The notes: a model not told the origin generated them from the letters alone. Counted from the stretch's first letter, positions 3,053 through 43,975 are shown. The stretch: 49,636 nt of DNA from a virus (IMGVR_UViG_3300033987_000055), one strand, 5' to 3'. Made by a program: numbers and translations.

Positions 3053-3223
3053 CTAATCGCAATAAGGAATTGTGAATCTTATTATTATCTCATCTTTAGT
3101 TGTACTTATTAGTTCAGTAGTACACTCTAACCATTCAGCCATTTCTTTTGGTACTGTCTTATATCCAGTTAGTTTTTCTATTTCTTTAATTAGGTCCTCA
3201 TATAGAGGACAGTTATTTGTGAA
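3053..3223 (-). pseudogene. 3' segment of an interrupted ORF: 56 sense codons, no usable start
   Basis: The frame opens right after an in-frame TAG (3226..3224) inside the 40-nt repeat and runs FTNNCPLYEDLIKEIEKL...RFTIPYCD to TAG at 3055..3053. The first Met is codon 28 and has no RBS. An open frame this long is unusual in DNA this AT-rich. Confidence 0.4.
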
Positions 3224-3258
3224 CTACCTCCACCTATAGAGGTGGTGGCTTCGTGGTC
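3219..3258 (-). repeat. 40-nt hairpin repeat, copy 1 (identical to 38053..38092)
   Basis: Minus-strand reading is GACCACGAAGCCACCACCTCTATAGGTGGAGGTAGTTCAC. Stem CCACC/GGTGG extends through CC/GG, followed by a 7-8 nt 3' tail. Confidence 0.9.
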
Positions 3259-3417
3259 AATACTCCAATCGGAGCAAGTTTACCCACGCTCAAAGGGCTG
3301 TTCCATCCCCAGTTTTACCATTCATATGGCTAATTTTAGTAGTTTGGTTTTCACTACTTTTTAGCAACATTCATCACCCACTTATTGAAGTGGGCGACTT
3401 CTGTCGCTGATTAGGTT
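3259..3417 (-). ncRNA. Candidate structured RNA or intervening sequence between the two halves of the split ORF
   Basis: Locally GC-enriched, non-coding. Serial hairpins are visible on the minus strand: GCGAC-agaa-GTCGC, CCCACTT-caat-AAGTGGG, AGTAGT-n9-ACTACT, CGTGG..(CTCC-gatt-GGAG)..CCACG. Confidence 0.3.
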
Positions 3418-3507
3418 AAATACAAAATCTTCTATATGGTCTTTCATTGTGCCTATGCCGCTTTGAATTACTTTTCTTTCAATAAGTTCTGGTTTACCAA
3501 ATTCCAT
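3382..3507 (-). CDS. Small ORF (41 aa as read), possibly the 5' segment of the interrupted ORF
   Basis: ATG 3507..3505 overlaps the upstream stop (TAATG) and follows an AGGAGAGG RBS. Sequence MEFGKPELIERKVIQSGIGTMKDHIEDFVF.. then runs into the structured insert and stops at 3384..3382. Confidence 0.45.
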   Translation of the reverse strand: MEFGKPELIERKVIQSGIGTMKDHIEDFVFNLISDRSRPLQ

Positions 3508-5642: not shown

Positions 5643-7229
5643 ATGAAAATAGCTATATATTCTAGAAAATCAAGGTTTTCAGAATCAGGTGAATCAGTAG
5701 AGAATCAAATTCAACTTTGCAAAGAATATATTGAAAAGCATTTTGATAATATAGAAAAGTTTTACATATATGAGGATGAAGGCTTTTCAGGTGGAAATAC
5801 AGATAGACCTCAATTTCAATTAATGCTAAAAGATGCGAAAAATAAAAAATTTGATGTACTAGTTTGTTATCGCTTAGATAGAGTGAGCAGAAATATTGCC
5901 GATTTCTCAAATCTAATAGAAGAATTACAAAGACACGATATATCTTTTATTTCTATAAAAGAACAATTTGATACTTCTACCCCTTTAGGTCGTGCTATGA
6001 TGTATATTGCTTCTGTATTTGCTCAATTAGAAAGGGAAACAATTGCAGAAAGAATAAGAGATAACATGCACCAATTAGCCAAAACAGGAAGATGGTTAGG
6101 AGGGACAACCCCTCTAGGATTTGATAGTGAACCTATTACATATATAGACCATGAAGGAAAGCAAAAAAAGATGTATAAATTATCACCTATTAAAGGAGAA
6201 CTTGAAATTGTTAAACTTATTTTTGATAAATACTTAGAATTTCAATCTTTAAGTCAATTAGAAGTATTTTGTCTGCAAAATAATATAAAAACACGCAAAG
6301 GAAAAGATTTCGGGAAAATTACTTTAAGACGTATATTAACAAATCCTGTTTATTGCAAAGCTGATATAGATGCTTATAATTACTTTTATGAAAATAAAGC
6401 TTTAATTTGTGATGATAAATCAAAATATAATGGGAAATATGGATTAATAGGATATAATAAAAACTTTAAAAAAGGTGCAATGGTTATACAGAAAGATATA
6501 TCAGAATGGATTATAGCAATTGGAAAGCATAAAGGAATTATAGATGGGAAAGGTTGGGTAGAGGTACAAAATATATTAAATAGAAGAAAAGATTTATCTC
6601 CTAGGCAAGCTACTTCTCATTATGCTTTACTAAGTGGTCTAATCAGATGTAAAAAATGTAATGGGTCTATGATAGTTAAATATGGGCCTATAAAATCAGG
6701 AACAAATAAAAGAATTGCTTATTACGTTTGCAGAATGAAAGTAAATTCAAGACAAGCTAGATGTCAAAATACAAATTTAAGAGTAGATGAGACCGATAAA
6801 TATGTTATAGATGAATTAAAAAAATTAATAGAAACTGGAGTATTAAAAGATTTAGATAAAGCTCAAAAACAATTAGAAAATAAAAACTTAATGAGAAAAA
6901 ATATAAAAGATAAAATATCAGAAAATGAAAAAGCTATAGATAACTTACTTAAGCAATTAGCTAAAACCGAAAATGAAATTATCACAAAATATATATTTGC
7001 AGAAATTGAAAAGTTAGATAAGGAAAACAAGGAATTAAAAGAAAAGCTTGAAAATTATAATATTGAAAATCAAATAGTAAATATTTCAGTTTTCAAAAAT
7101 GCTTGTATCAAGTTCTATGAAATGATTGATAATGTTCCAATAGAACAAAAAAGAAACCTTTTACAATCTATTGTAAATAAGGTTTGGTGGGATGGTGAAA
7201 ATCTAGAAATAGATTTATTTGACATTTAA
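5643..7229 (+). CDS. int: Large serine recombinase (phage integrase)
   Basis: 528 aa. Resolvase-type N-domain (IYSRKSRFS..YRLDRVSRN), recombinase domain, zinc-ribbon CKKCNGSM..YYVCR, C-terminal coiled coil. Confidence 0.9.
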   Translation: MKIAIYSRKSRFSESGESVENQIQLCKEYIEKHFDNIEKFYIYEDEGFSGGNTDRPQFQLMLKDAKNKKFDVLVCYRLDRVSRNIADFSNLIEELQRHDISFISIKEQFDTSTPLGRAMMYIASVFAQLERETIAERIRDNMHQLAKTGRWLGGTTPLGFDSEPITYIDHEGKQKKMYKLSPIKGELEIVKLIFDKYLEFQSLSQLEVFCLQNNIKTRKGKDFGKITLRRILTNPVYCKADIDAYNYFYENKALICDDKSKYNGKYGLIGYNKNFKKGAMVIQKDISEWIIAIGKHKGIIDGKGWVEVQNILNRRKDLSPRQATSHYALLSGLIRCKKCNGSMIVKYGPIKSGTNKRIAYYVCRMKVNSRQARCQNTNLRVDETDKYVIDELKKLIETGVLKDLDKAQKQLENKNLMRKNIKDKISENEKAIDNLLKQLAKTENEIITKYIFAEIEKLDKENKELKEKLENYNIENQIVNISVFKNACIKFYEMIDNVPIEQKRNLLQSIVNKVWWDGENLEIDLFDI

Positions 7230-7230
7230 T

Positions 7231-7272
7231 CGCACTTTGTAACGATAGCAACCTCTATAGTAACAAAATGCG
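7231..7272. other. Candidate attP core (imperfect 13-bp inverted arms around a 16-bp centre)
   Basis: cgcactttgtaac (7231..7243) and gtaacaaaatgcg (7260..7272) match 11 of 13 as an inverted repeat. Lies immediately downstream of int. Confidence 0.35.
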
Positions 7273-7288
7273 ATGAGCATAAAAAAAA

Positions 7289-7311
7289 GAGGTAGGCTAT
7301 TCCTACCTCTT
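7289..7311. terminator. Bidirectional terminator between int and the RHH gene
   Basis: AGAGGTAGG-ctatt-CCTACCTCT, with A8 on one side and T-rich sequence on the other. Confidence 0.7.
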
Positions 7312-7443
7312 TAAGTATTCTCTTAATAGTTCTTCTATTATTTCATTTACATTTTTCCCTTCTTCTATTGCTTTAACTTTTATTTTTTTTAATAATTCAT
7401 CATCAATGTTTGTAGTAAACTTAACTTTTTTCTTTTTTCCCAT
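7303..7443 (-). CDS. Ribbon-helix-helix (CopG/Arc-like) protein, 46 aa
   Basis: Not in the ORF track. Sequence MGKKKKVKFTTNIDDELLKKIKVKAIEEGKNVNEIIEELLREYLKR has a basic beta-strand followed by two helices. Confidence 0.6.
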   Translation of the reverse strand: MGKKKKVKFTTNIDDELLKKIKVKAIEEGKNVNEIIEELLREYLKR

Positions 7444-7465
7444 GACACCACTCCTTTTATAATGA

Positions 7466-7521
7466 TAAAAAAATAGGACTGTCTATAAGTATACCATACG
7501 TGTATACCTATAAACAGTCCC
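7466..7521 (-). terminator. Strong terminator ending the GC-rich moron operon
   Basis: About 19-bp stem GGACTGTtTATAGGTATAC / GTATACtTATAgACAGTCC followed by TATTTTTTT on the minus strand. Confidence 0.8.
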
Positions 7522-7572
7522 TGTGACGGTGAGGAAAAATCCTCGTGTCGTGGGAATTAGAAATCATGGGAG

Positions 7573-8193
7573 CTAGAAAATATCTGACACTTCCCTTTCC
7601 TCCCATGTGGCAGCTAGCAGCTGCCCGTTTCTGTAAACATAGTAATGTGCCGCTGGCTGCCCGTATAATCTGCCACTGTATCCCGTTCTAAAAACTACAT
7701 TTTCTGGCATAATGGCTACTAGCTGTTCACCGCTCCCCATTCTACCAGCATCCCCCTGAGCGATAATGCCGGTAGTGAGAATTTCTCCGGGGAATGGATG
7801 GAACTCAAGTTCACGCCTAAAACCGGCATCTGGAGAATACTTGCTGATGTCTTCGCCGGGGTAACTTGCTTTGAGATACTCCCGGCTATATCTCTGTACC
7901 TCCTCCCAAGTGTATCTCTCTTTTCTGGGCACGCTTTTGGGGAAACTTGCGTACCATTCACGCACCCAGTATTCCTCCTTGCGGTCTCCTGTATGGGAGT
8001 TCCCTCCCCTGAAACCTATCTTTGTCCTGAAGATACAGATACATTTTTCTGTAGTATCTGCATCTTCTGTTTGGAACAACTTTGGCTTTCCTGCCTTAGT
8101 TGTTCCTATCTTGGCAAAATTGATATATGTGTAACCTTTTTCTTGCCATTTCTTGTAATCATTGGGAAGGAGTTGGACTGGGAGCACTCCCAA
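7573..8193 (-). CDS. Hypothetical protein (206 aa), compositionally foreign (about 50% GC by eye)
   Basis: ORF track, TTG start after a purine-rich GGAAGGAAG. I recognise no family. Overlapping plus-strand ORFs are artefacts of the high GC. Confidence 0.55.
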   Translation of the reverse strand: MGVLPVQLLPNDYKKWQEKGYTYINFAKIGTTKAGKPKLFQTEDADTTEKCICIFRTKIGFRGGNSHTGDRKEEYWVREWYASFPKSVPRKERYTWEEVQRYSREYLKASYPGEDISKYSPDAGFRRELEFHPFPGEILTTGIIAQGDAGRMGSGEQLVAIMPENVVFRTGYSGRLYGQPAAHYYVYRNGQLLAATWEEREVSDIF

Positions 8194-8310
8194 CTTCCTT
8201 CCTCTTCCTTCCTCACCTATGATGATTGCAGGGATGGTAATCCCCGCACCTTTTCGTAAAATTTTTCATAAACTGTCATCATTTAAACCCCTCCAATTTT
8301 ATTTTTTATT

Positions 8311-8383
8311 CCTGCCTAGCAGGTTGAGCGGAAAGGGAGAAAACTCCCCTCCTGGGGTTTCACCAGGAACTCCCTAGCCCTGC
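8311..8383 (-). ncRNA. Structured intercistronic element A (two hairpins closed by GCAGG/CCTGC)
   Basis: Plus-strand reading: CCTGC-cta-GCAGGTTGAGCG..GGGAG-aaaa-CTCCC..CCTGG-n7-CCAGG..CCCTAGCCCTGC. Contains the stop codon of the upstream ORF. Confidence 0.6.
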
Positions 8384-8697
8384 TGTACAACTTCAAGTAC
8401 TTTTCTGCATCTCTCTGATGATGGATAGCTTTTTGCTAAATAGTATATTGCATTTTTAATTTTTTGTGGTAGTTCGTTGTAATCTACTTTTTTCACTTCT
8501 ATGACTCTGGAGCTCTCTAAAAATCCAGAGTATAGTGGTCCTGGGTCTAATACTTCGTAAATTGTTCCATCGTCGTCGAGCACGTAATCCCCCTTTTCGA
8601 GAAAAGTAAAGGCAAATTTTAGTGAATCATAATCTGTTTTTCCTGATTTAGGAATAAACTTATAAAACGTACTTGGAAATTTAACATATAGTTTCAT
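8374..8697 (-). CDS. Hypothetical protein (107 aa), ends ..QQG inside element A
   Basis: ORF track. RBS GGAGTGG. Confidence 0.6.
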   Translation of the reverse strand: MKLYVKFPSTFYKFIPKSGKTDYDSLKFAFTFLEKGDYVLDDDGTIYEVLDPGPLYSGFLESSRVIEVKKVDYNELPQKIKNAIYYLAKSYPSSERCRKVLEVVQQG

Positions 8698-8727
8698 TTA
8701 AACCACTCCTTATATAATTATTTTTTC

Positions 8728-8802
8728 CCTGCCTTGCAGGTTGAGCGTTAGGGAGGAGAATCCTCCCCGCTGGAACTTCCCCAGCCTAGAACCTAGCCCT
8801 GC
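8728..8802 (-). ncRNA. Structured intercistronic element B
   Basis: CCTGC-ctt-GCAGGTTGAGCG..GGGAGG-n5-CCTCCC..CTGG-n7-CCAG..CCTAGCCCTGC. Confidence 0.6.
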
Positions 8803-9056
8803 AACTGACGTAAATGCTGAAGAATTTTCTGATACTTTTCCCTTTTGATAACCTCTTTTTGTCGAGTAGCCAATACATACTGTTGACCGTAAGGATAAAA
8901 CTCAATATGAGTTCCGATTCCAATTTGTCGAAGCTCTTGCACTAGTTCCCTTAGATCAGCTTTTGGAATAATCCAACGATTGTATTCTTTAATGGCGCAT
9001 TCCCCAATCAGAAAAAACACAATCATTTGAGAAGCATATTTTTCAATTGTTTTCAT
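8793..9056 (-). CDS. Hypothetical protein (87 aa), ends ..LQG inside element B
   Basis: ORF track. Confidence 0.6.
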   Translation of the reverse strand: MKTIEKYASQMIVFFLIGECAIKEYNRWIIPKADLRELVQELRQIGIGTHIEFYPYGQQYVLATRQKEVIKREKYQKILQHLRQLQG

Positions 9057-9074
9057 TATATTTCCCTCCTTTGA

Positions 9075-9140
9075 GCAGGTTGAGCGGAGCAGGAGAAAAT
9101 CTCCTGACCTCGGCTTTCACGAGGTAGTCCCTAGCCCTGC
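9075..9140 (-). ncRNA. Structured intercistronic element C
   Basis: GCAGGTTGAGCG..CAGGAG-n5-CTCCTG..CCTCG-n7-CGAGG..CCCTAGCCCTGC. Confidence 0.6.
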
Positions 9141-9343
9141 ACATCCTCAATATATACTTCAATGTCTCCATTTTGGAGTATATCAATCATTTCGATTCCC
9201 CCCTTTGCTATATCTTCGCCAAGACTTTTAAGACGTTGTAAACAATCACATACAAATTCATCTGAAATTTGTTCATCAGATAATCCATCACGATAAGTTG
9301 ATGGAATGACTATTTTTTGAAATCCATGTTTTATTTCTCTCAT
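9131..9343 (-). CDS. Hypothetical protein (70 aa), ends ..VQG inside element C
   Basis: ORF track. Confidence 0.6.
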   Translation of the reverse strand: MREIKHGFQKIVIPSTYRDGLSDEQISDEFVCDCLQRLKSLGEDIAKGGIEMIDILQNGDIEVYIEDVQG

Positions 9344-10353: not shown

Positions 10354-10386
10354 AAAGGCTCTAGAAAAAATCTAGAGCCTTTATTT
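10352..10386. terminator. Bidirectional terminator between convergent genes
   Basis: AGGCTCTAGA-aaaaa-TCTAGAGCCT, flanked by A-rich and T-rich runs. Confidence 0.75.
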
Positions 10387-11782
10387 CTTTATATATATTT
10401 TTCAATACCATTTCCTCGTTTTGCTGGTTCAAATAAGCTACTTTTACATTCTTTCCTTCAATTGCATTCATTGCTCTATAGTAGATTCCGTGGTTGAGAT
10501 AATTTACATAGATAAAAATAATATCAACACTATCTAAAATCTTTGTATCAAAATTAGCCTGATCTGGATGTATGAATATAAAGTTTGGCAACAATTCTTT
10601 CATTCTCTGTTGCCATTTCTCATGACCACCTATAAGTACAGCTTTATATTTTTTTAAGAATTCCATATCAACTTCTTCTTGTACTGTATACTCTTCCTGT
10701 CTATCTAAATTGAACATAAATTCTCTTAAGCCATTGAGTTCATTTCTGTTTTTCCTTTCTTCTGCTAATTCTGATTGAAGTCTCCTGTTTTCTTTTTCTA
10801 ATACTTCTATTTGTTGTTGTAATCTAGTAATTTCCTGTTTTGCTGAAAATAATTTCTCAGTAGCAGAGTTTAAAGATTTTTCTAATCCTTCTAACTCAAC
10901 ATACATAGTTTCTTTATTGTTTTTGAAGTACATTTCCTTTACTTGTTTGTATGCTTTAATCATGTATCTGATATACATATGAGCTACAAGGAATTTAGTT
11001 GCTTTTTCTATATCTTTTAAATCCTCTTTAAATAAAACATAAAGATACAATATTTCATCTATGTTTTTACTAGTAAATTTAATATCTTCAAATAATGAGA
11101 TACTAGAAATATTTTCATAATCAAACAAATAAGCAGCTGCATCCATTCCTTTTGCATCAAATCTGCATTGCAAAATATCATTAAAATTTAATATTTCTCC
11201 ATATTTCTTATAAATAGCCTGCTTCAGTTCCTTTATTTTTTGCTTATCTTCTTCTGTTGCTTTGTCTAATGATATTCTTGCTTCATTATCTTCTCCATAA
11301 TGTTCCCATCTAAAGGATAATAATGATAAATATTCTTTATAAGTTTCGTTCTCGATTATTTCTCTTTCTTTGTTAATAGCCAAAAAAAGTAGTACTACAG
11401 TATGATATTCTATATTAATGCCATTTTCATCTTCTTCTCCACCATATTTTTTCATAAATGCATATATGAATTTACTCAAATCAATTCGCAAATGATTTTC
11501 TGCATATGTATAGGTATACCTAAATCCTCTTTTGAATAATTTTTCTAATTCAATTACTAGCTTTTCATCTCTTGGACCAATTAGGATTCCTAATGCCTTC
11601 TTACAATATTCTTCTTGAATTAAAGAGCCTTCTTTTACTATTGGGTGATTATATAATTCATGTTCTTTAGCTGCTTTGTAATATTCGTATTTATTCTCTT
11701 GATATATTCTATCTATATCCTTGTAGATTTTTTTATTCGCTCCTAAAGCTTCTATCACGAAAGGTAGTAGATTTACCTGCAT
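10361..11782 (-). CDS. Hypothetical protein (473 aa) with a central coiled coil and a DUF2325-like C-terminus
   Basis: The C-terminal LIGGHEKWQQRMKELLPNFIFIHPD..DIIFIYVNYLNHGIYY resembles DUF2325. The coiled coil is ..ITRLQQQIEVLEKENRRLQSELAEERK. Confidence 0.6.
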   Translation of the reverse strand: MQVNLLPFVIEALGANKKIYKDIDRIYQENKYEYYKAAKEHELYNHPIVKEGSLIQEEYCKKALGILIGPRDEKLVIELEKLFKRGFRYTYTYAENHLRIDLSKFIYAFMKKYGGEEDENGINIEYHTVVLLFLAINKEREIIENETYKEYLSLLSFRWEHYGEDNEARISLDKATEEDKQKIKELKQAIYKKYGEILNFNDILQCRFDAKGMDAAAYLFDYENISSISLFEDIKFTSKNIDEILYLYVLFKEDLKDIEKATKFLVAHMYIRYMIKAYKQVKEMYFKNNKETMYVELEGLEKSLNSATEKLFSAKQEITRLQQQIEVLEKENRRLQSELAEERKNRNELNGLREFMFNLDRQEEYTVQEEVDMEFLKKYKAVLIGGHEKWQQRMKELLPNFIFIHPDQANFDTKILDSVDIIFIYVNYLNHGIYYRAMNAIEGKNVKVAYLNQQNEEMVLKNIYKEIKALDFF

Positions 11783-36398: not shown

Positions 36399-36443
36399 AT
36401 TATACCATATAGAATTTTTTGTGAGCGGACATAAAGCGGACAT
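36399..36443 (-). promoter_or_regulatory. Late promoter: extended -10 (TGGTATAAT) without a -35, preceded by two 9-bp direct repeats
   Basis: TATAAT at 36404..36399 and TG at 36407..36406. The repeat agcggacat occurs at 36424..36432 and 36435..36443 (11-bp phasing). Confidence 0.55.
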
Positions 36444-36895
36444 TATTCCAATACTTCTTCACCATATAGCCCTACTGCCAGTTTGCATATTGCCTCGGCT
36501 CTAATTCTTCTACAATGTCTTTCGCTGTATTTTACTTCATATGCTATTTGCCACCATTGGAACCCATGTATGTAATACATTACAATTATTCTTCTTTCAA
36601 CATCGTTTAATCCCGTTAATAGCTTATTTATCGTTTCTAACTTGCTTTCTAATTTTTCTTTTCTTTTTCTTAATAATTCCTCTGCTTCAATTTTTCTCAT
36701 AACTGTATCTTCTGTTTGACTATGGATTTTATTTGTTTTGCTTATGCTTGCTCCATCGAAGGAGATTGACGTTAATCCATCTTCTTCTTCTAATTCGCCT
36801 AATTGTTTATATATTATCTCTATGTTTAATTTTAGCATGTTATAGTTATATAATAGTTTTTCAACACTTTTATAATATTTATCCTTAATCTTCAT
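36443..36895 (-). CDS. ArpU/RinA-like late transcriptional activator (sigma-70 region-4-like HTH)
   Basis: C-terminal LNDVERRIIVMYYIHGFQWWQIAYEVKYSERHCRRIRAEAICKL. Positioned just upstream of the packaging genes. Confidence 0.7.
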   Translation of the reverse strand: MKIKDKYYKSVEKLLYNYNMLKLNIEIIYKQLGELEEEDGLTSISFDGASISKTNKIHSQTEDTVMRKIEAEELLRKRKEKLESKLETINKLLTGLNDVERRIIVMYYIHGFQWWQIAYEVKYSERHCRRIRAEAICKLAVGLYGEEVLE

Positions 36896-38052: not shown

Positions 38053-38092
38053 GTGAACTACCTCCACCTATAGAGGTGGTGGCTTCGTGGTC
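38053..38092 (-). repeat. 40-nt hairpin repeat, copy 2 (identical to 3219..3258)
   Basis: Read directly. Located in the 202-nt spacer between ORFs 38128..38397 and 37581..37925. Confidence 0.9.
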
Positions 38093-39262: not shown

Positions 39263-39982
39263 TTAATCCTCATAACAACATTTATCAAATTCAACTTTCT
39301 CTAATAGTCCCATTCCCTGCCCGCATCTTGAACCTAGTCCTGCATTATATGCTAACCTAATCAGATCTCTATCCCCTTCTAAAGCTATTAATCCAACATA
39401 ACCTCTATAAGTATCCTTCTTATATTTGAAATATTCTGGTCTATGAGATAGAATTTTTATTTTCACGTCTCTTGCTGGTAATTTCCCATAAAGTGCATAA
39501 TATTTTTCTATAAGATTTTCTCCTAATTTTACTTCCATTTCTCTGAGTTTCAGCCACTTTCCGTCAATCCTTGTAGCATACACTGGACTAACTGCTTGGA
39601 ATATTTCTGAATTAGTCAATGCAGGCTCTTTTATGTAACTTATGCTGTGTATATTGAAACTATATCCAAATAATTGGATGCTACCTATCTTCATTAACCC
39701 TTGCACAAATTTAATTACAGTCTCCTTTACTGCTGAAGAAAATACCAACGTAGCTATCCCTTTCTTTAAATGAAACTGTGCTATTCGCTTATTTTGACTA
39801 ATGTTATAAACAAAGAAAACATATTTTTTATAGCCTACTTTCTTATAGCCTTCATGCAATTTCGTTGCATATTCTTCATCAACTTCAGCTATAGCTCTAT
39901 AGATAAAAGCTGTCATTGCTTCATTTAAAGGACTATAGAAATCTAAATCTTTGTTTACTATAAAATTCACTTGTACTCTCAT
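39263..39982 (-). CDS. cas6: Cas6-family endoribonuclease
   Basis: 239 aa. Double-ferredoxin-like layout, ..ATKLHEGYKK..FVYNIS.., C-terminal glycine-rich loop AGLGSRCGQGMGLL. Confidence 0.75.
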   Translation of the reverse strand: MRVQVNFIVNKDLDFYSPLNEAMTAFIYRAIAEVDEEYATKLHEGYKKVGYKKYVFFVYNISQNKRIAQFHLKKGIATLVFSSAVKETVIKFVQGLMKIGSIQLFGYSFNIHSISYIKEPALTNSEIFQAVSPVYATRIDGKWLKLREMEVKLGENLIEKYYALYGKLPARDVKIKILSHRPEYFKYKKDTYRGYVGLIALEGDRDLIRLAYNAGLGSRCGQGMGLLEKVEFDKCCYED

Positions 39983-41141
39983 CTACATCCCCCCCTGGCA
40001 CTAAACATAATTCTGTTTCTTTTCTCCAATAAGGAGGTAAAATAGGATGTTGTCTAGCATAAATAGGAATTTGTTTCATCATCATTTCTTCTATTTTCCC
40101 TTTGCATTCCTCTGCTGGGATTGGTCTCATAAGCTTTCCGTCTTTCCATATACTCCAGTCTTCCTCAATTTCTTCAAATTCCCATTTGCCAACTTGACCA
40201 AAGCCCTGACTTCCCTTTTTGCCTAAATAGAAGATGTAATTTTCTAGCAATCTTTTTACTTCTTCCATATCCCCTCTAACATAAAAAGTAATGGTTTTGT
40301 AACTTTGTATTACAACAGGCATGTGGTAGTTTTTATAAAATCCTGCTCCTATATCTACCCTTTCCTTGCCTTTGCCGTTGAATTTTACTATATCATCATT
40401 TTTATCATCCCAGCGTTTACTCCAACTTGTTACGCTTTCTCTATGCTCCCCAATCCCAATACTGGTACAATATACTCCATATTTTCTATCTAGAATTGGA
40501 TCTAACATTGTTCTTATTTGTTCTTCAGTTCCAACTACATTTTTACCTGAATAAAATTCTTCTCCTAATATTTCTTTTGCTTTTGCTGCTGATATAATTG
40601 AATCTAATATAATTGGCTCTATCGTTGCTATTGGAGTTCTCATATGTGCTACTACTTTGAAGTTTTTAAACATATCAATCTCCCCTAATAATAATTTTTT
40701 ACTTTCAGGAAACCTAAGATATTTTTCATCCAGATCGTTAGTCCTGGTTCTGTCTAAAGCATCACAATCTTTAAACACCTTTAATAAATATACAGCAGTG
40801 TCCTTATCTACAATATAATTTTCTACTGCCTTTATTCCATTTCTGTCACTAATACAGTGATTTTCTATTATATACTTTACATATTCGTAATTTGGCATGT
40901 TTAGATGAAGATTATGTTTCTCCAATTTTTTAATACTCTTAAATCCATGCTTAGTGTCTGTTCCATTATGTTCTCGCCCTATATCATGATATAAGGCTGC
41001 ATTATATAATATCTGTCTTTGTACTGGACCTATATCTAACAATGTAGACAGCTTTGTTACATTTGCAAGTACCCTATAAGCATGTTCTGTTCCATGAATG
41101 CCATTTGCATCTTTAAAAAGTTGACCATACTCATTAAACAT
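39933..41141 (-). CDS. csf3: HD-domain phosphohydrolase fused to a Cas5/Csf3-like RAMP
   Basis: N-terminal H..HD..H..D motifs (HGTEHAYRV, LYHDIGREH, ENH, DCDALDR). C-terminal half has VVAHMRTPIATIEPIILDSIISAA and the G-rich loop LGKKGSQGFGQVG. Confidence 0.65.
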   Translation of the reverse strand: MFNEYGQLFKDANGIHGTEHAYRVLANVTKLSTLLDIGPVQRQILYNAALYHDIGREHNGTDTKHGFKSIKKLEKHNLHLNMPNYEYVKYIIENHCISDRNGIKAVENYIVDKDTAVYLLKVFKDCDALDRTRTNDLDEKYLRFPESKKLLLGEIDMFKNFKVVAHMRTPIATIEPIILDSIISAAKAKEILGEEFYSGKNVVGTEEQIRTMLDPILDRKYGVYCTSIGIGEHRESVTSWSKRWDDKNDDIVKFNGKGKERVDIGAGFYKNYHMPVVIQSYKTITFYVRGDMEEVKRLLENYIFYLGKKGSQGFGQVGKWEFEEIEEDWSIWKDGKLMRPIPAEECKGKIEEMMMKQIPIYARQHPILPPYWRKETELCLVPGGDVDESTSEFYSKQRFRFL

Positions 41142-41898
41142 ATTGCTTCACCTCTGGGAAAGCTTCTTCCAATTTTTTGTATAATTCTGGATAATTTAAT
41201 TTTAGAAAAACTGCTGTGCCTTGATGTAATAGATCTGTAGCTGTTACATAACCTAACCTTATCCAAGTGTTCCCGTTGACACATTTTTTAAAGTATATCG
41301 GGTGAATTGGTAAATTATATTTAACAAGTGTTGCTGCTACATCTTCTAACTTGTACCATAAAATTGGGTAGCAAACCTTACAATAAGTTGGTACATTTGT
41401 TTCAAAATTCATCCCATGTGCTCTTGCTGCTTTCATTCTTCTCTTGCTTTCATATGCTCTTACACCTATAAAAGCTAAGTCTTTCTTTTCGGATTCCACA
41501 AAATTTTTAATTGCATCAAAAAAATATCCTCGCTTACCAAACTGAACTTTGCTACCTTTTCCCACTACATCAAAAGCTGATACCGGAGACCAATCTATAA
41601 TAACTTCTCTACCTAGATGCTCTGCTGTTAATTTAATTATGTCTTCTGTGTGAGGGAATGAAGCATCCGACAAGTGTGCCCACATTACAAAATCCCTTCC
41701 CATCTCTTTGGCAACTTCATTAACTAGCCCAGCCATTGCTACACTATCTTTACCACCACTAATTGCTAGGTATGGATTTTTGCATCTTTCAAACGCTTCT
41801 CTAATTGCTTGCTTCGCTCTTTCTTCTTTTTTCTTGAAGGAAGATAGCTGCATAGCTACCTTCCCCATTTTTACTAAATCAATATTTCTAAAGTTCAT
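41134..41898 (-). CDS. PAPS-reductase/CysH-like PP-loop ATPase (type IV-B-associated cysH-like)
   Basis: PP-loop YLAISGGKDSVAM. No C-terminal ECG(L/I)H redox motif is visible. Confidence 0.8.
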   Translation of the reverse strand: MNFRNIDLVKMGKVAMQLSSFKKKEERAKQAIREAFERCKNPYLAISGGKDSVAMAGLVNEVAKEMGRDFVMWAHLSDASFPHTEDIIKLTAEHLGREVIIDWSPVSAFDVVGKGSKVQFGKRGYFFDAIKNFVESEKKDLAFIGVRAYESKRRMKAARAHGMNFETNVPTYCKVCYPILWYKLEDVAATLVKYNLPIHPIYFKKCVNGNTWIRLGYVTATDLLHQGTAVFLKLNYPELYKKLEEAFPEVKQYV

Positions 41899-42734
41899 TA
41901 TTTTAAAACCCCTTCTATTTCTCTAATCCACTGTCTTATCTCTTCTTTATTTTCTTCTAGGTAGTTGTAGTAGGTTTCTTCACTTTCTAGTTCGTCATAC
42001 TGTATATCTACTTGCCCATGCCCTGCTGCTGATTTTCCTCCTATGAATGGTACCTCTTTTAATTTCTTTAGTGTAGCGTTTACCATTGCTTCTTCTACTT
42101 TATTGACGTTCTCGATTACTATAGTTCCTATTAATTCAGTTCCTGCGGATAGACATTGCATTTCATATTTCATTTGCACTGGGTCATCATTTTTCTTTTT
42201 GGCTACTTCCTCTTTGATGTTGTATTCTACAGACTTAAGGTCGTCTTTCCTTGTATAAAATACTTCTTCTAGCATGTCATAGAAGGATATATCGCTTTCT
42301 ATACCTGTATAATCTACTGTTTCCTTGCATATTGGTAGGAATATTGGAGCTTTCATTTTCCCTTGAAGTATTTGGTCCCCTATAGCTGTTCCAAGTAGAG
42401 CTAATGGCGGACACATCTTTCTAATTCTTCTTCTCTCTCCTACTTCTACATATCTAGCTCCGCCGACTAAAGCTCCACCAGTAAATAGAGTATAATATAG
42501 TTTCTCTGAAATTCCTTCTTCAGCAATACCCAATCTTTCAAGATAATCCCTCATAGCTATTCTTCTAAATTGTCCCCTGAATCCATTACCTGAATAAACT
42601 GGTATATCTATGAATTCACCGTTGTATAAGAATTTGTTTGTCCTCATAATCTGCATAGTTCCTAATCTTTCATCTCCAAAGTGGCTTAGTGGGCTTAATA
42701 ATTTCATCCTCACATCAATTTTTATATTATCCAT
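41898..42734 (-). CDS. csf2: Cas7-family RAMP (Csf2-like backbone subunit)
   Basis: IPVYSGNGFRGQFRRIAMRDYL and the C-terminal FIGGKSAAGHGQV glycine-rich loop. Confidence 0.75.
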   Translation of the reverse strand: MDNIKIDVRMKLLSPLSHFGDERLGTMQIMRTNKFLYNGEFIDIPVYSGNGFRGQFRRIAMRDYLERLGIAEEGISEKLYYTLFTGGALVGGARYVEVGERRRIRKMCPPLALLGTAIGDQILQGKMKAPIFLPICKETVDYTGIESDISFYDMLEEVFYTRKDDLKSVEYNIKEEVAKKKNDDPVQMKYEMQCLSAGTELIGTIVIENVNKVEEAMVNATLKKLKEVPFIGGKSAAGHGQVDIQYDELESEETYYNYLEENKEEIRQWIREIEGVLK

Positions 42735-43185
42735 CTATCTTAACCCCTTTCTCTGTAAATTTTACTTGTCTATTCCTTTCTTTTAATTCTCTTTCTCTCA
42801 ATTCTTGTTCTTTTAAGGATTCTTCCATTGCTTTTCTTGCATCTCTGTTTAGTCGAACTTCTAGTACTAACTGCAATGTTTCTTCTCTTATCAGCTTTAG
42901 TACTGCTTGTTTGAATTCCTCTGACTGTTGGCTAACATCTCTAAATATTCTGCTTCTTAAACTTCTGACGTCCATTTTTCTAGCTAGTTTTTCCACAAAG
43001 TTTTCATATGAGTTTGTAGTCATTGCTGCTGCTTTGATTTTGTTTCCAAATTCATCCCAAATGCCGTATGCTCTTCTTGAATCTACCTTGTCCCAGTCTA
43101 TACAGGACCAAATACCGTATATGGTAGATATGGCTACATCTCGTATGTTTTCTTCTGTGAAAGCAATTTCTATACGTCTATCCAT
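42727..43185 (-). CDS. cas11: Cas11-like small helical subunit
   Basis: 152 aa, all-helical by composition, Arg/Glu-rich. The call rests on its position between the csf1-like gene and csf2. Confidence 0.45.
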   Translation of the reverse strand: MDRRIEIAFTEENIRDVAISTIYGIWSCIDWDKVDSRRAYGIWDEFGNKIKAAAMTTNSYENFVEKLARKMDVRSLRSRIFRDVSQQSEEFKQAVLKLIREETLQLVLEVRLNRDARKAMEESLKEQELRERELKERNRQVKFTEKGVKIDG

Positions 43186-43195
43186 TTTATCCCTC

Positions 43196-43975
43196 CTAAA
43201 ATAGTTTTAATTGACCTTCTACTTGACTTTGTTCTTTTTCCTTTTGCTGTTTTTGTGCTTGCTTTTGCTTTTTCTTTTCTTCTTTCTGCTTCTTGATTCT
43301 TTCCTCAACTATTTTGTTTCTTTCCTCGCTGTTTAGTATGTATACTAGTAGATCGAATTGATGTGTACCTCTGTACTGCCTAATTACATCTTCATGTGCT
43401 TTGAATCTTTCTAACCCATATTCTTCTATTCTTGCTATAGAGTATTGCCCAGTCAATATCTCATCCTTTTGAAAATACATATACATATCCCAAATTATGT
43501 CGTATAATACTTTCATGTTTGCTCTATCAAATACGTATTCTTTATCCTCTTCTCTGATTATAAATACATTTGTGTTGTTGTTTACCTTACATCTATAAGA
43601 GTTGTGTTTTTTAAAGCTTCTCGTGATGCCAATTACAAAATCACCTGATACATACTTGTCTATGTTGAATAGATATTCTTCTAAGTCGTTTTTCTTCAGT
43701 AGATATAAGTTGTCTTTGTCTGCTATGATGTTATTTGTTCTTAGTTCCCTTATTTTTACACATGTTGCACATTCCTTGCATATATGAGTACCTTGTATGT
43801 TTGCGAATACGTCATAGTCAGTAAAGTTCCCTGATACTACTTTCTTGTATTTAACGCCTTCTCTGATTTCTTTGCCACACATCATGCATTTTGTTTCTAC
43901 ATCTTCTAGTTCTAGATCTGGAAGCTCTATGTTAGATTTCTTCAATGCACTGTATATGATTTCAGTTGCGTTCAA
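43196..43975 (-). CDS. csf1: Csf1-like (Cas8-like) large subunit with a zinc finger
   Basis: 259 aa. CMMCGKE..(n32)..HICKECATC. TTG start after GGGGGTGA. First gene of the operon. Lys/Glu-rich tail. Confidence 0.5.
   Translation of the reverse strand: MNATEIIYSALKKSNIELPDLELEDVETKCMMCGKEIREGVKYKKVVSGNFTDYDVFANIQGTHICKECATCVKIRELRTNNIIADKDNLYLLKKNDLEEYLFNIDKYVSGDFVIGITRSFKKHNSYRCKVNNNTNVFIIREEDKEYVFDRANMKVLYDIIWDMYMYFQKDEILTGQYSIARIEEYGLERFKAHEDVIRQYRGTHQFDLLVYILNSEERNKIVEERIKKQKEEKKKQKQAQKQQKEKEQSQVEGQLKLF

Follow-up and report, generated by a model that had tools for sequence, protein, structure and literature searches.

The virus genome IMGVR_UViG_3300033987_000055 (49,636 nt; this whole stretch, as analysed, is called the window below) carries an operon of six co-directional minus-strand genes, all intact and packed tightly into one unit at 39263-43975, which very probably belongs to the type IV-B family of CRISPR-Cas systems (CRISPR: clustered, regularly interspaced repeats that are short and palindromic). 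The set that marks this subtype, Csf1, Cas11, Csf2, Csf3 and a CysH-like enzyme, is present and is accompanied by neither a helicase nor an array, in agreement with the type IV-B-like class proposed in a first-pass annotation made from the sequence alone. The locus departs from typical type IV-B by having a Cas6 and an HD domain, the latter fused to the N-terminus of Csf3. Type IV-B loci with a Cas6 are already known and the operon is no one-off, being part of a recurring clade; what is new is the HD::Cas5 fusion, which is the only lineage-specific feature of the operon.

The gene identities put forward by the first-pass annotation were borne out, profile, sequence and structure-prediction evidence being concordant for csf1, cas11, csf2, cysH, HD::csf3 and cas6, and all of the motifs it had quoted (CMMC...CKECATC, IPVYSGNGFRGQFRR, GGKSAAGHGQV, ISGGKDS and GLGSRCGQGMGLL) occur in the translations. 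Its coordinates for the six open reading frames (ORFs) were also correct (Table 1); the junctions, from csf1 to cas6, consist of a 10-nt gap followed by overlaps of 8, 1, 8 and 50 nt, so that the limit of 11 nt it had given for them fails at the last, which is still an overlap. Profile, PDB and Foldseek matches establish that the type IV effector genes csf2 and csf3 are both present, and the likeness to Cas7 and Cas5 folds on which the earlier assignment depended was found, by profile and structure matches, for 41898..42734 and for the C-terminal half of 39933..41141.

The large subunit is Csf1 (259 aa, cysteine-rich) and not a Cas10-like protein, with matches to PADLOC Csf1_0_IV (2.3e-36, aa 9-219) and to TIGR03114 cas8u_csf1 (5.5e-12, under the curated cutoff), and the Csf1 proteins of relatives carry Pfam PF27781 (Csf1). 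The small subunit is recognised by PADLOC Cas11_1_IV (3.3e-22) and, in a sequence search of the PDB, matches chain 11fs_N, named 'Cas11c' (1.7e-4). Csf2 matches PADLOC Csf2_0_IV (1.3e-64) as well as the PDB entries 11fs_C, named 'Cas7c' (1.1e-16), and 7jhy, a type IV-B Csf2 (4.3e-13). Across the seven loci of alignment A2 it is 53-95% identical, with H18, D21 and E22 of its SHFGDE loop invariant, and this region may be the counterpart of the loop in which the putative catalytic Asp42 lies in the solved type IV-B Csf2 (PMC7937560). The NCBIfam matches of Csf1, Csf2 and Csf3 (5.5e-12 to 4.4e-15) lie far under the equivalog cutoffs, which would explain why relatives have been deposited as 'hypothetical protein'.

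Located between csf2 and csf3 is the gene of a PP-loop ATP pyrophosphatase with the fold of 3'-phosphoadenosine-5'-phosphosulfate (PAPS) reductase (Pfam PAPS_reduct 3.5e-13; phrog_2302 2.8e-37), in which the SGGKDS and R147..E150 S151..R154 motifs are intact. In alignment A6 the SxGKDS PP-loop and the R..ES..R motif of this family are invariant, and the proteins end in FPEVKxYV without a conserved C-terminal Cys. Cas-associated CysH has been described as an ATP alpha-hydrolase, not a sulfur reductase, and has been proposed as a recruited effector of type IV-B (PMC8175902); the residue pattern found here matches that of the Cas-associated CysH of the same study.

The C-terminal part of the fusion protein matches PADLOC Csf3_0_IV at 3.3e-46 (aa 157-383), and its AlphaFold2 model, with a predicted local distance difference test score (pLDDT) above 90 across most of the domain, finds in Foldseek the type IV-A Csf3 chains 8rc3_F, 8rc2_F and 7xg1_B (E 1.6e-10 to 6.1e-10, target TM-score ~0.64). 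The N-terminal part matches Pfam HD (7.1e-7, aa 19-101) and HDIG (1.8e-5), and the metal-ligand residues H16/H20, H52-D53, H65, H95 and D125/D127 are all present and invariant in the 19 sequences of alignment A3. For the AlphaFold2 model of this domain, built from an HD-only alignment (pLDDT 91.8), the best Foldseek matches are weak (E 0.015-0.1, query TM-score ~0.5) and comprise PDE5/2/4, Ppx/GppA and PgpH. The defence library returned for it only weak matches to Cas3 and Cas10 HD profiles, those to Cas3-HD (0.0017-0.039) being restricted to the H...HD region, as is the match of a separate HD protein from the distant relative L058 to a Cas10 profile (9.4e-5). The domain may therefore be a nuclease or a small-nucleotide phosphodiesterase. 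The first-pass annotation had taken it as a departure from the nuclease-less condition of type IV-B; the domain is indeed there, but that it is a nuclease is not established, the nearest folds being those of generic HD phosphodiesterases.

The closest homologues of the HD domain (39-46% identity) are found in non-Cas proteins of ~450 aa from Bacillus, Alkaliphilus and metagenomes, and many further ones are stand-alone proteins of ~190 aa. The ~450-aa proteins (P0079-P0095) have an N-terminal YRG...SWT...ExE pattern which, by eye, is like that of R-S-E ADP-ribosyltransferases; Pfam and PADLOC recognise either the HD part of these proteins or nothing. When 1.84 billion representative proteins were searched exhaustively with HMMER, no second protein with HD plus Csf3 appeared among the best 150 of 1865 matches; no paper mentioning an HD-Csf3 fusion was found, and one candidate for a further fusion (P0188) was rejected, as it has two HD domains. 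Within the lineage, the same HD and the same junction occur on two diverged Csf3 backgrounds (P0001 and P0003), which, together with the separate HD gene of L058, argues that the domain works with the complex and is no passenger.

The sixth gene encodes a protein that scores 90.4 bits against TIGR01877 (cutoff 58.65), so that both additions to the type IV-B set claimed in the first-pass annotation, the Cas6 and the HD domain, are confirmed. It further matches PADLOC Cas6b (3.9e-38), the Pfam Cas6_I-A N-terminal domain (1.8e-8) and Cas_Cas6_C (1.4e-16), and, in the PDB sequence search, Pyrococcus furiosus Cas6 (3pkm; 1.6e-17). The features of the Cas6 family, namely two halves resembling repeat-associated mysterious proteins (RAMPs), a C-terminal glycine-rich loop and a catalytic His, can all be recognised in it, and cleavage is predicted; among 19 homologues His43 is nearly invariant and the glycine-rich loop is conserved. 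A search with this Cas6 yielded 17 clusters at >=50% identity, several of which share contigs with Csf3 proteins of the clade, and the gene is present in at least 13 loci.

Cas6-bearing type IV-B loci have been noted before as rare exceptions, with 12 instances (PMC7038947). The plasmid of Thermococcus nautili was considered as another precedent and rejected, since the protein annotated there as 'CRISPR-associated endoribonuclease Cas6' (L055 6824-7567; NZ_OX281346.1, WP_285519926.1) is a Csf3 homologue, which in BLASTP matches the Csf3 domain of the window at 4e-21 and has no match to its Cas6; judged by its genes, this plasmid locus is canonical type IV-B. The HD::csf3 ORF of the window extends 17 codons beyond that of its 91%-identical relative P0001 and runs into cas6. 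The overlap of the two genes would fit a junction at which cas6 was recently gained or lost, the gene being absent in the related locus L004.

Table 1. Coordinates of the operon, its domains and other features of the window
Feature	Position	Strand	Remarks
csf1, small Cas8-like large subunit of type IV	43196..43975	-	259 aa, TTG start; Cys-rich zinc-finger pattern C30xxC33 ... C66xxC69xC71
cas11, type IV small subunit	42727..43185	-	152 aa
csf2, Cas7 backbone subunit	41898..42734	-	278 aa; SHFGDE loop and GGKSAxGHG glycine-rich loop
cysH-like	41134..41898	-	254 aa
HD::csf3	39933..41141	-	402 aa
HD domain of HD::csf3	40674..41141	-	aa 1-156
Csf3 (Cas5) domain of HD::csf3	39933..40673	-	aa 157-402
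cas6, endoribonuclease	39263..39982	-	239 aa; His43, glycine-rich loop GLGSRCGQGMGLL
Overlap of HD::csf3 and cas6	39933-39982	-	50 nt
ArpU-type late activator	36443-36895
40-nt direct repeat, first copy	3219-3258
40-nt direct repeat, second copy	38053-38092		solo copy of right end of miniature element
Miniature IS200/IS605 element	~3219-3420	-	inserted after TTTAAC
phrog_11092 protein	10361-11782	-	473 aa, coiled-coil middle
Cassette of small ORFs	7573-9343
Twister-sister ribozyme copy	9071-9142	-
Twister-sister ribozyme copy	~8721-8806	-
Twister-sister ribozyme copy	~8304-8390	-

Mapping the window's proteins onto all fetched loci gave a common plan, csf1-cas11-csf2-[slot]-csf3-[HTH]-[cas6] (HTH, helix-turn-helix), shared by Clostridium-type phages, prophages and phage-plasmids, and a word-indexed search with HD::Csf3 found 78 Csf3-containing clusters (43-95% identity), mostly of stand-alone proteins of 221-233 aa. 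The first-pass annotation had described a combination for which it knew of no described subtype. As regards the HD::Csf3 fusion, which is lineage-specific, this stands; an isolated oddity it is not, given that the clade is sizeable, that a cysH inside the operon is the rule and that Cas6 is common.

The slot between csf2 and csf3 is variable. It holds CysH alone in L007, L044, L052 and L060, CysH with extra sequence in L051 and L053, and CysH followed by the HD fused to Csf3 in the window, L004, L048 and L049. In the distant relative L058, CysH is accompanied by a separate HD gene (136 aa; same family, only 32% identical), and in L045 by a 144-aa protein and an N6/N4 DNA methylase, PAPS-reductase, ParB and methylase genes also lying nearby in L044 and L045. 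An unrelated 248-aa protein occupies the slot in L005, L006 and L057, and in the Clostridioides difficile elements L046 and L047 it is empty. In L005, where Csf2 and Csf3 are 95% and 91% identical to those of the window, the 248-aa protein replaces both CysH and the HD domain, and CysH is 22-52% identical between loci whose Csf2 is 59-69% identical; this swap, together with a divergence of CysH exceeding that of Csf2, indicates that the slot is exchanged as a module.

The 248-aa protein belongs to a family of 67 clusters (225-250 aa; L006 9262-10008, L005 814-1491, L057 673-1338) with the invariant residues D62 S63 G64 A65, H190, G195 and D214. Nothing significant was found for it in Pfam, NCBIfam, PHROGs or a PDB profile search, and hhalign showed no homology with CysH. 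Its motifs DSGA[FY], HxLGAGW and FDSxDS presumably resemble those of a DpdA/TGT-like transglycosylase; the assignment to DpdA/TGT was not supported, as profile searches gave no significant match.

The setting of the operon is that of a temperate phage. The ends of the window are identical over 127 nt and the genome can therefore be regarded as complete and circularly assembled; a large serine recombinase (Resolvase, Recombinase and Zn-ribbon domains) and a plus-strand HTH_3 repressor are encoded in it, in keeping with the temperate lifestyle inferred earlier. The position given for the operon, between replication and nucleotide-metabolism genes and the late activator, was likewise upheld: upstream, as the operon is transcribed, are the genes for RecT, a replication initiator, a DnaC-like loader, a single-stranded DNA-binding protein and a MazG-like pyrophosphatase, and downstream those for the ArpU-type late activator, an exonuclease and the large terminase. 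No terminator-like sites were found on the minus strand between 44000 and 37970. As to DinG or RecD, no helicase is among the six ORFs that fill 39263-43975, and the flanking ORFs are shorter than 120 aa, the rest of the genome being partly annotated. Of the cellular relatives found, a prophage in Clostridium lapidicellarium is the nearest, and Clostridioides difficile elements with ParA/ParB are further removed. Among deposited phage genomes there is no close relative: megablast gave no match, and the sole tblastn match to Csf2 is in Skermania phage SPI1 (25.7%). A role of the operon in host takeover or inter-element competition, as first proposed, may be inferred.

In the general mechanism that we favour, and to which we give an even chance of being correct, the operon makes an RNA-protein filament on RNA encoded elsewhere and uses the enzymes of the slot as its output during lytic growth. 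Csf2 and Cas11 would polymerise on RNA and form a Csm-like filament with Csf3 and Csf1 as its caps, by analogy with 7JHY, type IV-B being known to form such a filament on RNA (PMC7937560). The RNA would not come from beside the operon and would most plausibly consist of repeat-containing host CRISPR transcripts cut by the phage Cas6; these are favoured because a conserved, apparently active Cas6 in an array-less clade needs a repeat-like target and because no such target is conserved next to the operon. At loci without Cas6 the RNA may be another cellular or phage RNA. The catalytic output would lie in the exchangeable modules between csf2 and csf3, here an ATP-consuming CysH-like enzyme and an HD hydrolase, the latter tethered to Cas5 at the 5'-handle end of the filament, beside the large subunit and thus at the same end as the Cas10-HD of type III and IV-C. 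These modules would act on bound target nucleic acid or on nucleotides in lytic growth, serving counter-defence or competition between mobile elements. In favour of this mechanism speak the gene identities, the lack of arrays, the modular slot and the place of the operon in the early/middle lytic region, along with purifying selection and the intact active sites of Csf2 (loop), Cas6 (His43 and glycine-rich loop), CysH (PP-loop) and HD (metal ligands).

Several points weigh against this mechanism. The locus L004 contains the whole operon, HD::Csf3 included, with proteins 88-98% identical to those of the window and without cas6, so at least some of the function does not need Cas6. The solved type IV-B complex was not enriched for CRISPR RNAs (crRNAs) even with Cas6 and an array co-expressed (PMC7937560), and no RNA partner was identified in the present analysis. 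The HD model is nearest to generic phosphodiesterases and not to the HD nucleases of Cas3 or Cas10, and the substrate of the domain may be small nucleotides instead of a guided target. Lastly, the slot also contains apparent passengers, such as a transporter-like fragment in L051, which makes adjacency weak evidence of coupling.

A more specific form of the filament mechanism, in which the phage Cas6 and the filament armed with HD and CysH are loaded with crRNAs from host arrays, is much less likely than the general one, and we think it improbable. If it were true, the immune memory of the host would be turned into a weapon controlled by the phage and directed against rival phages or plasmids, or would be drained from the host effectors; the modules of the slot (CysH, HD, methylase, 248-aa protein) would then represent a toolbox of outputs for a single RNA-guided platform, and a role for type IV-B would finally be shown.

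Guide-independent modification or protection, with a filament formed without sequence specificity on heterogeneous RNA or phage nucleic acid and used as a platform for CysH, the methylase, the 248-aa protein or HD, which would mark phage DNA or RNA or shield it from host restriction, is kept alive as an alternative by the near-identical, Cas6-less L004 and by the behaviour of the solved type IV-B complex, which bound heterogeneous non-CRISPR RNA (PMC7937560). The DNA methylase in the slot of L045 and the PAPS-reductase, ParB and methylase genes near L044 and L045 would be consistent with it, as would the exchange of CysH for another enzyme-sized protein at 95% Csf2 identity. However, conservation of the Cas6 catalytic His across at least 13 loci implies that the enzyme has a specific RNA substrate, Cas-associated CysH has no known modification chemistry, and sequence searches gave the 248-aa protein no recognisable fold match; we regard this alternative as rather doubtful.

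An anti-CRISPR sponge is also conceivable, in which Cas6 and the Csf filament would trap host pre-crRNA and crRNAs in an inert complex, leaving the host with fewer interference complexes during lytic growth, while the HD domain might also hydrolyse nucleotide second messengers of host defence. Such an idea has been raised for type IV-B (PMC7038947), RNA-based anti-CRISPRs made of solitary repeats are known (PMC11656645), and it would accommodate both the retention of an apparently active Cas6 by an array-less system and the placement of the operon for lytic-phase expression, as well as an HD fold nearest to cyclic-nucleotide and cyclic di-AMP phosphodiesterases. These Foldseek matches are weak, though (E >=0.015), an anti-CRISPR of five or six proteins was judged unlikely in the work that raised the idea (PMC7038947), and host complexes already loaded would escape; moreover, there are close relatives without Cas6, and the CysH, methylase and 248-aa modules would be left unexplained. 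On balance a sponge seems unlikely to us.

Ordinary RNA-guided type IV immunity, served by a missed or degenerate array elsewhere in the phage, is suggested by the two-repeat mini-array of an archaeal type IV-B virus (PMC10848311) and is already largely refuted here, making it very improbable. Four independent scans of the window, three for direct, tandem and short-range repeats and one with custom k-mers, gave no repeat-spacer structure, and this absence holds for a complete genome of ~49.5 kb. Nor was an array found in any of 20 related loci (~250 kb in total), and no non-coding motif is common to the flanks of the Cas6-bearing operons. Clostridial type I-B/III repeat sequences gave no match in the window at <=7 mismatches, which is a weak test. 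What is left to this explanation is a single solitary repeat without a second copy, which would be invisible to repeat finders.

The sole long exact repeat of the window is a 40-nt direct repeat whose two copies lie 34.8 kb apart, the second of them 1.2 kb downstream of cas6. Read on the minus strand, it gives a hairpin and a tail of 8 nt, much as a CRISPR repeat does in its 3' part, and it was accordingly considered as a solitary CRISPR repeat. This was rejected, the first copy being the 3' end of a conserved element of ~200 nt, the scaffold of which is shared by 39 viral contigs, about a dozen of which have it directly after the 3' end of TnpB; in L027, TnpA (Y1_Tnp 5.7e-46) and TnpB (OrfB_IS605 1.1e-32; Cas12f1-like TNB 1.9e-25) lie immediately upstream of it. 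From this association with TnpB and TnpA it follows that the repeat belongs to a miniature IS200/IS605 element, as its right end and omega-RNA scaffold, and is no Cas6 substrate. The miniature element has one hairpin at its left end and one at its right, together with a remnant of the TnpB omega-RNA scaffold, and no TnpB gene was identified in the window. In L007 (6655-6903) and L038, where a related type IV-B operon follows, the mini-element stops 15 nt short of the csf1 start codon, the 40-nt repeat sequence being what ends there in L007. In L002 (~5850-6105) it splits a tRNA-like gene at the anticodon loop, with the 5' half ending in ...ATCGGCTTTTAAC and the 3' half being CCGATAAGTCTGGCGTTCGAGTCGCCAATGAGTCACCA; a small group I-like tRNA intron was considered for this case and rejected, there being no Rfam support and a transposon fitting better.

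The least credible explanation is that of a decaying, non-functional CRISPR-Cas remnant carried as cargo, which would account for the missing array, adaptation genes and helicase but is contradicted by six intact ORFs with overlapping junctions and conserved catalytic motifs, and by a core that is 50-95% identical over many independent phage and prophage contigs.

Two further observations concern other parts of the window. A phrog_11092 protein is encoded far from the operon, and its homologues adjoin the csf operon in L045 (6673-8124), L046 (11244-12668) and L047 (11244-12653). Near the integrase, three copies of the twister-sister self-cleaving ribozyme separate small ORFs within a cassette that lies in the GC-richest stretch of the window (38.5% GC over 7001-9000). 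One copy scores 39.2 bits against Rfam RF02681 (gathering score 34), a default Rfam gathering run having missed all three, and the copies share a consensus fold in which 10 pairs are retained by changes on both sides.

Type IV-B is the one widespread CRISPR-Cas subtype whose function is still described as unsolved (PMC12669027, PMC11656645), and the present clade gives three handles on it that are absent from canonical type IV-B. The first is a Cas6 with an intact active site that is never accompanied by an array, which implies a specific RNA substrate encoded elsewhere. The second is the HD hydrolase, fused to Cas5 here and encoded by a separate gene in a distant relative, the predicted catalytic activity of which is open to assay and mutation, and the third is the natural swap of CysH, with or without HD, for the 248-aa protein at 95% Csf2 identity, which points to the csf2-csf3 slot as the effector position. 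With its HD::Cas5 fusion, its Cas6 without an array and the natural swaps of modules, the system offers a useful entry to type IV-B function, and deletion and competition experiments are feasible because the phage is complete, temperate and related to Clostridium prophages.

Among known systems, canonical type IV-B, such as that of Mycobacterium sp. JS623 (PDB 7JHY), shares with the window the five-gene set of Csf1, Cas11, Csf2, Csf3 and a CysH-like protein, the latter having the PP-loop and lacking the conserved C-terminal Cys (PMC8175902), as well as the absence of an array, an adaptation module and a helicase. Arrays, mini-arrays and solitary repeats have not been found near type IV-B loci (PMC7038947), and the 2025 classification, which keeps three type IV subtypes, describes type IV-B as devoid of effector nucleases and arrays (PMC12669027). 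The window differs by its Cas6 and by the HD fused to Csf3, by its location in a Clostridium-type phage instead of an actinobacterial plasmid, and by a Csf2 with only ~27% identity to its Rhodococcus and Mycobacterium counterparts and 36% to one from a Thermococcus plasmid. Virus-borne type IV-B is known from prophages and from the archaeal 'Fuxiviridae' (PMC10848311); the system of the latter likewise combines the effector with a CysH-like protein and has been proposed to act in counter-defence or mobile-element conflict, whereas it has a two-repeat mini-array, an archaeal host and neither a Cas6 nor an HD domain reported.

Type IV-C resembles the operon in having an HD at the large-subunit/Cas5 end, a Cas11, sometimes a Cas6 and often no array, and in the PDB the sequences of Csf2 and Cas11 are best matched by the 11fs chains named Cas7c and Cas11c. 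In type IV-C, however, the large subunit is Cas10-like with an N-terminal HD, whereas here it is a small Csf1, the HD is carried by Csf3 and is closest (39-46%) to non-Cas HD proteins, and CysH is present. With type IV-A (Csf1-3, Cas6/Csf5, DinG and an array) the operon shares the Csf core and a dedicated RNase of the Cas6 family, and its Csf3 model superposes on type IV-A Csf3 chains (E ~1e-10); it differs in the presence of Cas11 and CysH and the lack of DinG and an array. The helicases of the related subtypes, DinG in IV-A and IV-E and RecD in IV-D, which come together with an array, are absent from the operon, and the genes for Csf1 and Csf3, fused in type IV-E, are separate.

As an analogy, the nearest counterpart of the HD::Csf3 fusion can be seen in the Cas5-HNH Cascade of type I variants (PDB 8ZLU, 8ZP7), entries of which are also among the structural matches of the fusion model. 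It differs in that the domain is HNH and not HD and in that these type I systems have arrays and demonstrated guided DNA cleavage, the activity of the present system being putative. What they have in common is a domain of a nuclease superfamily placed on Cas5 in a class 1 complex without the usual helicase-nuclease, and the structures of the Cas5-HNH Cascade establish that a nuclease fused to Cas5 can be the effector (PMC12669027).

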